From: a virus
Lineage: Duplodnaviria; Heunggongvirae; Uroviricota; Caudoviricetes
Virus record (IMG/VR): IMGVR_UViG_2671180770_000006
DNA: 5,784 bases
Strand: one strand, 5' to 3'
Positions 1 to 4,559 of this stretch are shown one piece after another. The position numbers and the translations under genes were made by a program. Within the stretch, counting starts at the first letter, position 1. Each line of letters begins with the position of its first letter. The notes under the pieces are model-generated. The model made no database searches. It was not told where the DNA came from and saw only the letters and a list, made by a program, of their open reading frames with translations.

Positions 1-58
1 CAACTGGCTCTCCGGAAACAAGAAAAACTGTCAGAACAAGTGCAAATGCTGTATTCAT
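1..58 (-). CDS. Hypothetical protein, partial (5' end only; gene continues beyond left edge). N-terminus MNTAFALVLTVFLVSGEPV is hydrophobic, signal-peptide or membrane-anchor like
   Basis: Minus-strand ATG at 58..56 overlaps the upstream gene's stop (plus tcat at 55-58 = ATGA on minus), a classic translational-coupling junction. The 19 codons in the window are open and hydrophobic. Not in the ORF track because it is truncated. Confidence 0.4.
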   Translation of the reverse strand, partial: MNTAFALVLTVFLVSGEPV

Positions 59-378
59 TGCCAGCATCCTTTTTGTATCGGACGTAAACGGGCCAACATT
101 GAAAGAATGCATATTTTATTTAATAGCTCCCGTTCGTGTTTTCTCTTGTTAATGGCATCTTCAGTAAATACAGGGTTACTGATAGTGACACCAATTTCAA
201 AACAACCTTCAGACGTATTAACGTTTGGTAATAACGTTTCCATTATCGCGTCCTCAACAATGAATTTTGTGATGCAGTGCCTGGTGCCTCCAGGTGACGT
301 TAACCAGTTAACAATTAACGCCGGATACAGAGCATTCCCGTTACGCCCGTAAAAGACCGCTTGTTTTAACTGTTCCAC
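55..378 (-). CDS. Hypothetical small protein (107 codons from GTG at 378; alternative ATG at 243 with GAGGA 7 nt upstream would give 62 aa)
   Basis: ORF from the six-frame track; the codon at 376-378 is GTG with no obvious SD, whereas the internal ATG at 241-243 has a good SD. Protein-like composition extends to about 378. Stop overlaps the next gene's ATG (ATGA). Confidence 0.5.
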   Translation of the reverse strand: MEQLKQAVFYGRNGNALYPALIVNWLTSPGGTRHCITKFIVEDAIMETLLPNVNTSEGCFEIGVTISNPVFTEDAINKRKHERELLNKICILSMLARLRPIQKGCWQ

Positions 379-810
379 GTGCGCTGAGCCGCATTCACCG
401 CATCACAAAATTCACTTTAAAAAAGGCGGCAGAGCAGTTACGGAGTAAAACTGGTACCGCCAAACGTCACCAGAAAATGGATAACAGAGGGCGTTGCAGC
501 GTGGTTGTCTCTTAAGCGTATGGTCAACCTGACAACCCGGTGTACTCAACGGGGAAGGAATAACCCCGCCATACTTACCGCCGCGCCATTTCGCGGATTG
601 CCACAACCGGAAGCGCACGGTCGACGAAAATTTAACGACAGGCTATCTATGAACCAGCTACCTCGCCGAGCGCTTTCGCGTTATGGTCTGACTTTTCAGG
701 GAAATATCCTTTCAGTAAACTGTCAGTGCCGGATGCTCACCCGTGTCCGGCGCACGCACTCCACCTCACCCGTGGAGAACTCCTTAATCACCAACCCTCA
801 GGAGGGTGAA

Positions 811-1086
811 ATGTCGACTGAAAATGATGAAATCATTAACTCCCTGATACGCCAGATTAATAATTTTGATAAAGCATTGCAGCATGCTGCGGCGCGTAGT
901 GATATAACTCTTTTAGCAATTTCATTTCTTGCATCTGTTATGGATAAAAATGAAGTCGTACGACAGAGTCTTGTTGATTATATCGACTCGCTTCAACCCG
1001 GCACTTTCAATCATGAGAGCTTCAATCATGAGAAAGAGCATGTTAAGTCTGTAATTAATTCTCTTATTTTGAATCAAAAGAATTAA
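811..1086 (+). CDS. Hypothetical small protein, 91 aa (MSTENDEIINSLIRQ...), one hydrophobic segment (ITLLAISFLASVM)
   Basis: ATG at 811 preceded by AGGAGG at 800-805 (5-nt spacing). The listed 193-aa ORF from 505 begins with TTG and its first 100 residues are R-rich and not protein-like, so the start is placed at 811. An intrinsic terminator follows. Confidence 0.6.
   Translation: MSTENDEIINSLIRQINNFDKALQHAAARSDITLLAISFLASVMDKNEVVRQSLVDYIDSLQPGTFNHESFNHEKEHVKSVINSLILNQKN
1006..1035 (+). repeat. Tandem 15-bp direct repeat (ttcaatcatgagagc / ttcaatcatgagaaa) inside the 811-1086 CDS, encoding FNHES-FNHEK
   Basis: Two adjacent 15-mers, 13/15 identical, read directly from the sequence. Confidence 0.8.
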
Positions 1087-1384
1087 TGCTTTTTGTTGCA
1101 AAGTAATTTTCAAGGGGTTCTATTCGAATCCCTTTCTTTTTCATTAACAAGCCAAACCCCTTATCAATGATGTCCATTAGATCCAGGAAGTATTTTTCAT
1201 GTAAATCCTGGTTATCAGAGAGCTGCTTCTCTTCGTACAGACCGATAAAGGCACGACGCACGTTACCGGATATAGTATCGATGGTTTCTTTTTCTACGGT
1301 ACTCAGGTCAAGAGTCGCCAGTTGGGAACGAACTATATTCGCTGCCATTTCCTGGAATTGCATTGGTAAATCTTTAAATTCCAT
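1064..1384 (-). CDS. Hypothetical acidic protein, 106 aa; last gene of the leftward early operon
   Basis: ATG at 1384..1382 with GAGG 6 nt upstream on the minus strand; 22-nt gap from the upstream gene; protein-like composition. Confidence 0.6.
   Translation of the reverse strand: MEFKDLPMQFQEMAANIVRSQLATLDLSTVEKETIDTISGNVRRAFIGLYEEKQLSDNQDLHEKYFLDLMDIIDKGFGLLMKKKGIRIEPLENYFATKSINSFDSK
1112..1141 (+). terminator. Putative rho-independent terminator for the 811-1086 gene
   Basis: Stem AAGGGGTTC (1112-1120), loop TATTC, stem GAATCCCTT (1126-1134): 9 bp with one G-U pair in RNA, followed by TCTTTTT (1135-1141). It lies inside the 3' end of the convergent minus-strand ORF 1064-1384. Confidence 0.45.
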
Positions 1385-1406
1385 TATTAGCCTCGTTGGT
1401 TAGCTA

Positions 1407-1625
1407 TTAACGTGGGTATGTAACCATTCTGGCAATGCTTAATGCCGCTGCTTTTTCCAGCCTGGTGATATCCTGCTCCAGAGCGGACAGATTTTCAGCC
1501 TGCTTAGTCCTGGCTTCATTGGCCCATTTCAGATCCTGCGCTGCATTAATTTTCTGGCGCATCCACTCATAAAGTTCATCATCGGTATAGTCTGGCGCGA
1601 TGATGACGGGTTCTCGTTTCTGCAT
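1407..1625 (-). CDS. Hypothetical protein, 72 aa, predicted helical/coiled (MQKREPVIIAPDYTDDELYEWMRQKINAAQDLKW...)
   Basis: ATG at 1625..1623 with GAGGA 6 nt upstream on the minus strand; follows the 42-aa gene after about 30 nt. Confidence 0.6.
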   Translation of the reverse strand: MQKREPVIIAPDYTDDELYEWMRQKINAAQDLKWANEARTKQAENLSALEQDITRLEKAAALSIARMVTYPR

Positions 1626-1654
1626 ACTGATTCCTCGCGGTGCTGTTTCGCTTA

Positions 1655-1783
1655 TCAGCCGTTAGATTTTCCCGAACTGGAAAGCGCCTGTTTAAATTCA
1701 CTGAAGCTGAGAGCTTCTTCGCCTTCGGCAAGACCATCGAAGTATTCTTCGTAAGCTTTTTCCATGATTGTGTCGAAATCCAT
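1655..1783 (-). CDS. Hypothetical small acidic protein, 42 aa (MDFDTIMEKAYEEYFDGLAEGEEALSFSEFKQALSSSGKSNG); resembles in size and position the tiny ydaF/ydaG-type ORFs of Rac-like prophages (from memory, unverified)
   Basis: Hand-translated from the minus strand (below the ORF-track length cutoff). ATG at 1783..1781 lies 1 nt after the upstream gene's TGA (GAG TGA T ATG), with AGGTGAG as SD inside the upstream gene's end. Confidence 0.5.
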   Translation of the reverse strand: MDFDTIMEKAYEEYFDGLAEGEEALSFSEFKQALSSSGKSNG

Positions 1784-1784
1784 A

Positions 1785-1940
1785 TCACTCACCTGAGTTT
1801 CTCTCCAGCCAGCGACGGGCACCATTTTCGGTTTTAAACGTTTTGCTTTTGGTATACGTCATCGCGGTGAATGTGCCGTCCTGGTTGGGAAACACGCCGT
1901 ACACCAGAGATTCGTTGTTGCCAAGCTCGATAGTATCCAT
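1785..1940 (-). CDS. Hypothetical small protein, 51 aa (MDTIELGNNESLVYGVFPNQDGTFTAMTYTKSKTFKTENGARRWLERKSGE); first gene of the leftward early operon
   Basis: Hand-translated; ATG at 1940..1938 with GAGGT 4 nt upstream on the minus strand; stop at 1787..1785 is coupled to the next gene. Confidence 0.5.
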   Translation of the reverse strand: MDTIELGNNESLVYGVFPNQDGTFTAMTYTKSKTFKTENGARRWLERNSGE

Positions 1941-2011
1941 GCTGACCTCATTTCCCCTTAACGCCGGGTGGCGGAACTAAAACCTACAGCGCCGTGCTGT
2001 TCTTGATGGGA

Positions 2012-2040
2012 ATATTAGTAACGCGGATATTTTAAGTCAA
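2012..2040 (-). promoter_or_regulatory. PL-like sigma70 early-left promoter (minus strand: TTGACT, 17-nt spacer, TAATAT)
   Basis: -35 TTGACT is the reverse complement of 2035-2040 and -10 TAATAT the reverse complement of 2012-2017, with a 17-nt spacer. It sits upstream of the leftward small-gene operon and its spacer/-10 closely resembles the PR-like promoter. Confidence 0.5.
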
Positions 2041-2137
2041 CAGTATGGCGTATGATATTTTTGATTTGGTAACTATGTAAATGTTTTTTCAAGGGAAAAA
2101 TATTAGTTATACAGCTGATTTGCAAAAGTTATGGCAC

Positions 2138-2167
2138 AAAAAAACCGACTAAGACGTCGGTTTTTTT
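2138..2167. terminator. Bidirectional rho-independent terminator just downstream of the repressor gene
   Basis: A7-CCGAC-taagac-GTCGG-T7: a perfect 12-bp inverted repeat with a GC core and A/T runs on both sides, so it gives a U-tract in either orientation. Located 27 nt beyond the repressor stop (2194-2196). Confidence 0.75.
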
Positions 2168-2193
2168 GTTGTGGATGGGGTAGTGAGCGGTGG

Positions 2194-2655
2194 CTACTGG
2201 TTACGTTTCTTTAGTGCCAGCATGTTCTCGAAGGCTTCCTCGTAGAGCTTGTTTAGTCCACGTAGCTGGTTAAGGAGTTTGGCTTTTTCTGACGCAGGTA
2301 GAATCTCGAAGAGGTTAAGTAACTCTGCCTGTTCTTCATTGACCAGCCTCCATCCTTTGCCTGAAAAGTTATCATCATAATTATCTGATGATCTTACATA
2401 ATTCATTAAGTCTTTAAGGTCTTCTCGAATGTCCTCTGGTTTTACCTTTAACAGAGCCGCAAATTTTAGCGCAGCGTCGGTATTTACCGGTATCTTGCCG
2501 TTCAGATACTGGCTAACGGTGCCTTGAGATTCGAATCCCAACAACTCAGCCGCCAGCTCTTGAGTCAGCTTCAGCTCTTTTTTTCTTGCATTCCATGCGG
2601 CTTTTAAATTCTTGCTCGCTTCTGGAGTTGCAATCACTTCGCGTGTTTTTTTCAT
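2194..2655 (-). CDS. racR: Prophage immunity repressor, CI/RacR-like, XRE-type HTH near the N-terminus, 153 aa; no recognisable LexA/S24 autocleavage domain
   Basis: HTH-like segment LTQELAAELLGFESQGTVSQYLNGK; divergent from a Cro-like gene across about 100 bp; terminator immediately downstream; C-terminal half lacks a peptidase-like motif. Symbol given by architecture match to the Rac RacR-YdaS-YdaT module, not by verified identity. Confidence 0.8.
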   Translation of the reverse strand: MKKTREVIATPEASKNLKAAWNARKKELKLTQELAAELLGFESQGTVSQYLNGKIPVNTDAALKFAALLKVKPEDIREDLKDLMNYVRSSDNYDDNFSGKGWRLVNEEQAELLNLFEILPASEKAKLLNQLRGLNKLYEEAFENMLALKKRNQ

Positions 2656-2661
2656 ACATAG

Positions 2662-2689
2662 AGTTTATTTGTTTTACCAATATTATCAA
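2662..2689 (-). promoter_or_regulatory. PRM-like promoter for the repressor (minus strand: TTGATA, 16-nt spacer, TAAACT), predicting a leaderless or near-leaderless repressor mRNA
   Basis: -10 TAAACT ends 6 nt before the repressor ATG and there is no SD upstream of that ATG, analogous to lambda cI transcribed from PRM. Hexamers read from the sequence; the start site is inferred. Confidence 0.4.
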
Positions 2690-2703: not shown

Positions 2704-2732
2704 TTGATCTTTAAAATTAGCGGGGCTAATAT
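2704..2732 (+). promoter_or_regulatory. PR-like sigma70 early-right promoter (TTGATC, 17-nt spacer, TAATAT) with embedded inverted repeat ATTAGC-GGG-GCTAAT (2716-2730)
   Basis: -35 at 2704-2709 and -10 at 2727-2732. The 6-3-6 inverted repeat occupies the spacer and overlaps the -10, a typical operator position. About 30 nt upstream of the Cro-like ATG. Confidence 0.55.
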
Positions 2733-2762
2733 TTGCTCGAGGCATAACGTAGAAGGTTGGCT

Positions 2763-3447: not shown

Positions 3448-3518
3448 CTGACAATATTCATACCGGATCGCTTCCGGCAATTCGTGAGTAAAAAGATTCG
3501 GTATCAGAAGAGGTGAGT

Positions 3519-4559
3519 ATGGCTAATGCCTGGCTCAGATTATGGCATGACATGCCAAATGATCCTAAGTGGCGAACAATTTCCAGGGTGTCAGGACAGC
3601 CAATTGCAACAGTGATGGCGGTGTATATCCACCTTCTGGTGAGCGCGTCACGAAATGTCACGACATGTCACGGCGTGTCACTACGTGGTCACATTGATGT
3701 CACGACGGAAGATTTAGCAAGTGCGCTTGATGTGACGGAAGAAGTAATTGATTCAATTTTACAGGCAATGCAGGGGCGGGTACTTGATGGAGATTTAATC
3801 ACCGGATGGGAAAAACGCCAGGTACTGAAAGAGGACAATGGCAACGTTTCACAAACCGCGAAATCCCCAGCAGAGCGCAAGAGAGCGCAGCGCGAGAGGG
3901 AAAAATTACGAAAACAGAATGAGGGGTGTCACGACGAGTCACGCATATGTCACGACATGTCACGACGAGTCACGACAGATAAAGATACAGATAAAGAATT
4001 AAACCCCACACATAACGCGCACGTGCGCGAGAGTGATCCGACCAGTGAGTCGAGTGGTACGCCGTTGCAGGCAGCAGAACCTGCATCCCTGGATGGACTG
4101 AGCGAACCCATCGGGAAATTTCCGATGGTCGATGGCTGGCATCCGTCGCCGGATTTTCGACGACGGGCTGCGTTGTGGGGGATGGCTTTGCCGGAGCCGG
4201 AATTTACACCTGCTGAACTTGCCGCTTTCCGGGACTACTGGGCAGCGGAGGGGAAAGTTTTCACGCAGGTTCAGTGGGAGCAGAAATTCGCCCGTCACGT
4301 AAATCACGTCAGGGCGCAGGTTAAGCCAGTCAGCAAGGGGGTAAACCATGCAGCAGCACCAGGTGGCACCGCATCACGGGCAGTTCAGGAAATTCGGGCA
4401 GCACGTGAGCAGTGGGAACGTGAAAACGGATTTATCAGCGACGGAAACGGTCTGGAAGCTGTGGGAACTCATGGGGGAGGTTTATTCGAACCGCTGGACC
4501 CAGAAGAACGGGGCCGCACCTTCGAAGCTCTGGATTGCACAGATTGGCGCGATGACTGA
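3519..4559 (+). CDS. Replication initiator (lambda O functional analogue): N-terminal domain, low-complexity charged linker and C-terminal domain; contains the putative origin
   Basis: Sits immediately upstream of a P-like gene; two arrays of GTCAC(GAC) direct repeats plus an AT-rich tract lie inside the ORF, the linker-embedded arrangement known for ori-lambda in gene O. ATG at 3519 with AGAGG 5 nt upstream (track start 3513 is a GTG). The last 212 nt overlap the P-like gene out of frame, so the true C-terminus is uncertain. Confidence 0.65.
   Translation: MANAWLRLWHDMPNDPKWRTISRVSGQPIATVMAVYIHLLVSASRNVTTCHGVSLRGHIDVTTEDLASALDVTEEVIDSILQAMQGRVLDGDLITGWEKRQVLKEDNGNVSQTAKSPAERKRAQREREKLRKQNEGCHDESRICHDMSRRVTTDKDTDKELNPTHNAHVRESDPTSESSGTPLQAAEPASLDGLSEPIGKFPMVDGWHPSPDFRRRAALWGMALPEPEFTPAELAAFRDYWAAEGKVFTQVQWEQKFARHVNHVRAQVKPVSKGVNHAAAPGGTASRAVQEIRAAREQWERENGFISDGNGLEAVGTHGGGLFEPLDPEERGRTFEALDCTDWRDD
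3647..3708 (+). repeat. Iteron-like array 1: six direct repeats of GTCAC(GAC) at 10-11 bp spacing (starts 3647, 3657, 3667, 3677, 3688, 3699)
   Basis: Counted directly. The helical-turn period places the repeats on one DNA face, and the phase drift makes the protein read CHD / SR / VTT in rotating frames. Confidence 0.7.
3928..4003 (+). repeat. Iteron-like array 2: five GTCACGAC-type repeats (starts 3928, 3938, 3949, 3959, 3969) followed by AT-rich GATAAAGATACAGATAAAGAATTAAA (3978-4003); candidate origin core and unwinding element
   Basis: Counted directly. The iterons-then-AT-rich layout parallels ori-lambda; the AT tract itself contains GATAAAGA twice. Confidence 0.65.

Follow-up and report, generated by a model that had tools for sequence, protein, structure and literature searches.

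The four small leftward genes at positions 1064 to 1940 of the window, by which we mean the whole 5,784-nucleotide stretch of viral DNA that was analysed, most probably belong to a lambdoid E. coli prophage and make up the half of its dicBF-type early-left operon that lies next to the promoter, a reading to which we assign a probability of about 90%. This is not a novel operon, because three of the four genes are the ydfA, ydfB, and ydfC that open dicBF. We see here the dicBF operon, which is already known, placed in another immunity background and carrying one accessory cassette. The operon has been described since the 1980s. The sole mildly new point is a variable sense/antisense cassette between ydfC and dicF.

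The four leftward genes and their continuation

The original prediction described four leftward genes of 51, 42, 72, and 106 aa with tight junctions and SDs, and the coordinates, sizes, and gaps that it gave are correct. The segment and its genes are listed here in gene order.

1064-1940, minus strand: operon segment of four co-directional ORFs (ORF list and sequence)
1785-1940, minus strand: ydfA (DUF1391), 51 aa; Pfam match, 50/51 identical to K-12 YdfA
1655-1783, minus strand: ydfB, 42 aa, acidic; phrog_2061 at 6.8e-27, 40/42 identical to K-12 YdfB
1407-1625, minus strand: ydfC, 72 aa; phrog_1744 at 2.9e-39, 69/72 identical to K-12 YdfC
1064-1384, minus strand: orf106, hypothetical protein, 106 aa; phrog_6937 at 2.9e-69, absent from K-12 Qin

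The stop-to-start gaps between these ORFs are 1, 29, and 22 nt, and an SD lies ahead of every start (GAGG, AGGTGA, GAGGA, and GAGG, from ydfA to orf106). The start of the 42-aa gene is an internal ATG within a 56-aa mechanical ORF. All four ORFs exceed chance ORFs. The PHROG E-values of the four proteins are, in order, 5e-36, 7e-27, 3e-39, and 3e-69, the differences between the window and K-12 fall mainly at third codon positions, and public collections already contain the four proteins with exactly these sequences, on 673 to at least 1000 contigs.

The genes had been presented as newly found and unassignable, which fails for three of them, since the K-12 Qin prophage has them as ydfA, ydfB, and ydfC, the names that they also carry in RefSeq. 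RefSeq relatives are annotated ydfA/ydfB/ydfC, the ydfB entry being named "protein YdfB." YdfA matches Pfam DUF1391 (PF07151) over profile positions 1-48 of 48 with 96.4 bits against a cutoff of 27.3 (E 7.4e-28). K-12 Qin is annotated in the order dicC, dicA - ydfA(51) - ydfB(42) - ydfC(72) - dicF - dicB - ydfD. By blastn, window 1387-1978 aligns with K-12 ydfABC at 96.1% identity, and window 1-796 aligns at 93.5% with the K-12 spacer, dicF, dicB, and the start of ydfD, a match that includes the processing region.

An operon of four genes ending at 1064 was too short a reading, as it continues to dicF, dicB, and ydfD within the window.

424-475, minus strand: DicF small RNA and terminator; Rfam RF00039, 70.5 bits against a gathering score of 48, E 1.5e-14, full length
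55-243, minus strand: dicB cell-division inhibitor, 62 aa; Pfam DicB 8e-37, NCBIfam 3e-39 (above cutoff), 55/62 identical to K-12 DicB
1-58, minus strand: 5' end of ydfD (DUF1482 lysis protein), running off the window; the K-12 alignment extends into it and a relative is so annotated

The 5' end of ydfD, translated by eye, reads MNTAFALVLTVFLVSGEPV. Gene identities, order, and spacing, together with DicF and DicB, were thus established on the window itself, which has ydfABC in order after a repressor, DicF downstream on the same strand, and dicB followed by ydfD, as in dicBF of the Qin type. The original prediction had called this region a slot where division inhibitors are kept, and DicF and DicB bear this out further down the same operon. 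Rfam also matches the spacer between dicF and dicB (211-426, minus strand) to STnc100, a Salmonella sRNA family, but below threshold: 32 bits, where the gathering score is 47 (E 3e-4).

Distribution and prophage context

Megablast with window 1000-2200 found some part of this region in 4104 of 5426 complete E. coli genomes, about three quarters. The features lying under the matches are ydfA (DUF1391), ydfB, ydfC, two hypothetical proteins, and an HTH protein. The closest relative of the whole window is E. coli CEA106S (98.1% identity), where the region lies in a near-complete lambdoid prophage adjoining potC. The gene order of that prophage is int-xis-exonuclease-ydfD-dicB-...-ydfCBA-repressor-YdaS-YdaT-replication (DnaT-like, P)-lysis-terminase-head, and this context makes the operon the genuine early-left arm of a lambdoid phage.

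On the replication side of the window, the initiator gene (3513-4559) contains two clusters of TGTCACG repeats phased at 10 bp (3645-3694 and 3927-3986). They resemble the iterons of an origin, set within an O-like gene.

Repressor, putative terminator, and predicted early-left promoter

Upstream of ydfA we find a repressor gene, a hairpin, a predicted promoter, and copies of a short motif.

2194-2655, minus strand: DicA-like immunity repressor, 153 aa, N-terminal HTH; Pfam HTH_3 1.1e-09
2136-2169, unstranded: hairpin with perfect 14-bp arms, flanked by an A run and a T run; inverted repeat, 100% complementary
2012-2040, minus strand: predicted early-left promoter, TTGACT-17-TAATAT; promoter scan
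2011-2018, minus strand: CYAATATT
2099-2106, minus strand: CYAATATT
2677-2684, plus strand: CYAATATT
2726-2733, plus strand: CYAATATT

The repressor gene is upstream of the operon and co-directional with it, and Pfam finds no S24 peptidase domain in its product. The protein scores 35 bits against the NCBIfam DicA subfamily, below the cutoff of 101, and is identical to K-12 DicA at 36 of 157 aligned positions (about 23%). Because of this low identity we assign it to a different immunity type, and for the same reason, together with the score under the NCBIfam cutoff, its regulation is drawn by analogy. The position of the hairpin suggests an intrinsic terminator that would end the repressor transcript before the early-left promoter, comparable to lambda t_imm.

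The early-left operon had been placed under a PL-like promoter, and this agrees with what is found: the predicted site is at a distance like that of K-12 dicBp, with 72 nt from the -10 to the ydfA ATG versus 78 nt for the K-12 TTGACC-17-TAATCT, and dicBp is stated to be analogous to lambda PL (PMC10448788). By this analogy the predicted promoter at 2040-2012 would correspond to dicBp, and transcription would start near 2005. A second promoter-like site at 2081-2052 scores nearer consensus than 2040-2012, so that the true start site is uncertain. Also in line with the original prediction, no ORF matches an N family in Pfam, NCBIfam, or PHROGs, and thus an N-type antiterminator is lacking by these searches. 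The 5' UTR shows no nut-like or unusual structure (z = +1.16).

The motif CYAATATT occurs four times in the window, solely in the two regions flanking the repressor gene, where 0.33 copies would be expected by chance for a motif that was picked post hoc, by hand search, with the sites already seen. The copies are oriented with the outward early promoters, and the -10 element of each predicted early promoter, leftward and rightward, is one of them. A generic repeat finder returned no operator repeats. We infer the exact promoter and operators of this immunity type from these features, and CYAATATT is a candidate operator or promoter element.

YdfA, YdfB, and YdfC

For the small proteins that ydfA, ydfB, and ydfC encode, the literature gives no known function (PMC5069750), and in 2024 they were still listed as uncharacterised (PMC11551758; bioRxiv 10.1101/2024.09.21.614188). 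Profile and structure searches on the four proteins yielded families, DUF1391 and PHROGs, and gave no function or fold match. Specifically, DUF1391 and PHROG families without an assigned function were all that came back from Pfam, NCBIfam, PHROGs, and PADLOC. With the PADLOC defence models all hits were at noise level (below 14 bits, E no better than 0.0091), and the sole match to one of the four genes is a sub-significant hit of YdfA to AbiEi (E 0.0091, 13.7 bits). Homology to a protein of known role, by which the original prediction said it would be overturned, was not found; the relatives are named and functionally unknown.

The YdfA family has 285 homologues, all enterobacterial, with YdaF of Rac among them. 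The AF2 model of YdfA consists of three beta strands and one helix, with a pLDDT of 78 overall and >90 in the core. Because of this predicted beta-beta-beta-alpha fold we would speculate that YdfA is the most plausible small nucleic-acid binder of the four. An AP2/ERF-like or integrase-arm-type beta3-alpha DNA-binding domain was considered for YdfA and rejected, as profile-profile comparison with PDB-derived AP2 sequences gave a probability of 3.3%.

Searches of PDB sequences with the four proteins and a YdfA profile returned only a short profile match between YdfA residues 21-39 and the head decoration protein SHP of phage 21 (PDB 1td0; E 0.012 over 19 residues). We judge this similarity spurious, an annotation artefact, and the label "head-DNA stabilization protein D" that ydfA carries in some phage records probably arose from these 19 residues. 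The plasmid gene called "ydfA" in the IbfA paper is unrelated to this one.

A variable sense/antisense cassette

In K-12 nothing corresponds to window 797-1386, a segment of 590 bp inserted between ydfC and the DicF precursor region. The segment holds orf106 and, converging on it, an antisense ORF with its own terminator.

811-1086, plus strand: orf91, convergent antisense ORF, 91 aa; strong SD CAGGAGGGTGAAATG, RefSeq WP_000102678.1
1112-1134, plus strand: intrinsic terminator; terminator scan, 26 nt past the orf91 stop and embedded in orf106 codons

The 3' ends of orf91 and orf106 overlap by 23 nt. The entire cassette is present in 198 of 5426 complete E. coli genomes, and parts of orf106 are present in 932. 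We found 235 homologues of orf106, all in Escherichia/Salmonella and every one labelled hypothetical, and an exhaustive profile search among 1.84 billion proteins recovered the family as only 43 representative clusters. Longer and distant relatives in these 43 clusters were checked for fused known domains, and no Pfam domains were found. In the alignment of variants, the N-terminal ~53 aa of orf106 are strongly conserved, and the C-terminus occurs in several unrelated versions, giving proteins of 106/109, 122, 124, and 133 aa; the frame is open through these 106-133 aa in every variant. Its AF2 model is three-helical (pLDDT 69), and Foldseek against the PDB returned no significant match for it, the best being the anti-CRISPR AcrIIC4 at E 1.4.

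In the other prophages sampled, the orf106 gene comes directly after ydfA, or ydfC, or the full ydfABC set. Every locus examined pairs it with an antisense ORF (73/127, 92, or 100 aa), and three of the antisense ORFs have the SD-ATG context (CAGGAGGGTGAAATG) in common. A cassette copy at 91% identity keeps the orf91 frame, and more than half of the substitutions between close cassette copies are synonymous. Compared with the 92-aa antisense ORF that occupies this slot in another prophage, orf91 shows 28% identity across 86 aa (pairwise E 4.8e-5), which suggests that orf91 is a real, fast-diverging gene. It is probably an independent one. A tblastn search of phage genomes with orf91 gave no match.

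Several further observations concern this stretch. The ydfC-dicF spacer carries exchangeable cassettes at loci L003-L006 and L011-L013, and the slot is empty in K-12; the antisense gene's own plus-strand terminator was noted in the window's cassette. The orf91 frame is open upstream to an ATG at 649 (649-810, plus strand), and the resulting 145-aa version is annotated by RefSeq in some genomes; this extension is antisense to the K-12-conserved DicF precursor region, and its openness may be incidental. In E. coli NCTC86 (locus L001, 4382-5236), the annotation places a gene for a Rha-family regulator between the orf91 cassette region and dicB in a prophage that is otherwise 97% identical, a further sign of a left arm that is a mosaic of inserted modules.

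It is conceivable, though we think it quite improbable, that the stretch between ydfC and the DicF precursor is a recombination hot spot with exchangeable two-gene cassettes and that orf106/orf91 is an undescribed module expressed in lysogens, for example for defence, exclusion, or as a toxin-antidote pair, which convergent early-left transcription would turn off at induction. Each cassette may then consist of a sense gene with a fixed N-terminal domain of ~53 aa and a swappable C-terminus, together with an antisense gene that diverges fast and is equipped with an SD and a terminator of its own.

Alternative roles for the small proteins

Our best guess is that the four proteins serve the phage's own early programme, in regulation or nucleic-acid transactions, and not an attack on host division. 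Host-takeover factors, meaning inhibitors of division or growth like Kil or DicB, would be in keeping with the early-left slot, which is the site of lambda kil and of Qin dicB/dicF, and a filamentation screen did recover the dicA-to-dicB region of a Qin-like prophage of UTI89, with the effect ascribed to dicB and dicF (PMC6206680). However, a K-12 Plac-dicBF strain without dicF and dicB keeps ydfABC, 94-98% identical to those of the window, under the induced promoter and is normal in growth, CFU, and morphology (PMC5069750), a result that bears on ydfABC and not on orf106. We regard a takeover role as very unlikely. An anti-defence or superinfection-exclusion factor among the proteins is possible but on the whole unlikely. 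Small, acidic (YdfB), fast-shuffling early genes of temperate phages typically house such functions, the gene content of the slot is mosaic between prophages, and the top Foldseek match of orf106, albeit non-significant, is to an anti-CRISPR. Yet neither a meaningful PADLOC match nor a significant fold match was obtained, and with dicB deleted and ydfABC expressed in the same type of strain (dicF/dicB deleted), lambda-vir plates near control, in an assay of lambda-type phages only (PMC6832061). Since induction of K-12 ydfABC without dicF and dicB is harmless and lambda-vir plates, YdfABC are disfavoured both as division inhibitors and as lambda-exclusion factors, and for these three proteins the K-12 data contradict the role that had been proposed (PMC5069750, PMC6832061).

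One of the proteins might instead regulate its own operon, either as an N-independent read-through factor at the dicF terminator or as a modulator of how the repressor binds at the early-left promoter, and this we consider rather unlikely. That some of the ORFs, orf106 above all, are not genes, merely open frames in a spacer conserved through the antisense gene or RNA features, seems to us extremely unlikely. The C-terminal half of orf106 does vary, changing together with the antisense cassette, a plus-strand terminator lies inside its codons, and the confidence of its model is moderate. Against this, its N-terminal 53 aa are conserved at the protein level in a frame that stays open in every variant, its SD is at the correct distance, the substitutions between close copies are more often synonymous than not, and YdfA, YdfB, and YdfC have curated or PHROG families.

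Proposed expression of the operon

The reading that we prefer, the promoter-proximal half of a dicBF-type operon, implies the following course of expression. In K-12, the dicBF transcript starts at dicBp upstream of ydfA, DicA represses it, and the Rem antirepressor relieves the repression; RNase III and RNase E process the transcript to give DicF (PMC10448788). Four elements of the reading come from the K-12 literature: that there is one transcript, that DicA represses it, that the RNA is processed, and that ydfABC are not toxic. In the window, a DicA-like repressor without a self-cleavage domain would be followed by the terminator and then by a repressor-controlled sigma-70 promoter at 2040-2012. 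Once repression is lifted, one leftward polycistronic RNA would carry ydfA, ydfB, ydfC, and orf106, with ydfB translationally coupled to ydfA across their 1-nt gap. A long untranslated stretch would follow in the RNA, with DicF being cut out of it by RNase III and RNase E, and transcription would go onward to dicB and ydfD and, in intact relatives, also to the exonuclease, xis, and int genes. The four small products would be genuine, conserved, accessory early proteins, and non-toxic as judged for ydfABC from the K-12 literature.

The annotation can be taken as settled: the segment is ydfA-ydfB-ydfC with an accessory ORF, part of a dicBF operon and no new gene cluster. YdfA, YdfB, and YdfC belong to the "known unknowns" of the E. 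coli y-ome, and their biochemical role is a long-recognised gap rather than a new finding. The variable cassette is a reasonable spot in which to seek accessory prophage functions.

Comparison with known systems

YdaF of the Rac prophage belongs to the Pfam family of YdfA as a DUF1391 paralogue, and some members of the cluster carry the name "YdaF family protein." It lies in another prophage among other neighbouring genes, and because it is equally uncharacterised it adds no functional information.

The lambda PL operon has the same layout of repressor gene, terminator, repressor-controlled leftward promoter, and small accessory genes, with a division inhibitor, recombination genes, xis, and int further along. 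In contrast to lambda, the window has no N antiterminator and no recognisable nut sites, and its first genes are those of YdfA, YdfB, and YdfC. It also differs in having a processed small RNA in the operon and a repressor without the S24 self-cleavage domain.

The dicBF operon of K-12 Qin shares with the window its gene order, the lengths of 51/42/72 aa, and the junctions, and the ydfABC proteins are 94-98% identical. In both, DicF, DicB, and the start of ydfD lie downstream, and the upstream side has a co-directional HTH repressor that lacks a cleavage domain. Unlike Qin, the window has a repressor and a Cro-like gene of another immunity type (~23% identity), a terminator hairpin between the repressor gene and the promoter, and the 590-bp orf106/orf91 cassette between ydfC and the DicF precursor region. 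With its antisense gene and plus-strand terminator, this cassette could alter read-through relative to K-12. Finally, the element that hosts the window looks like a near-complete prophage, whereas Qin is a cryptic remnant.
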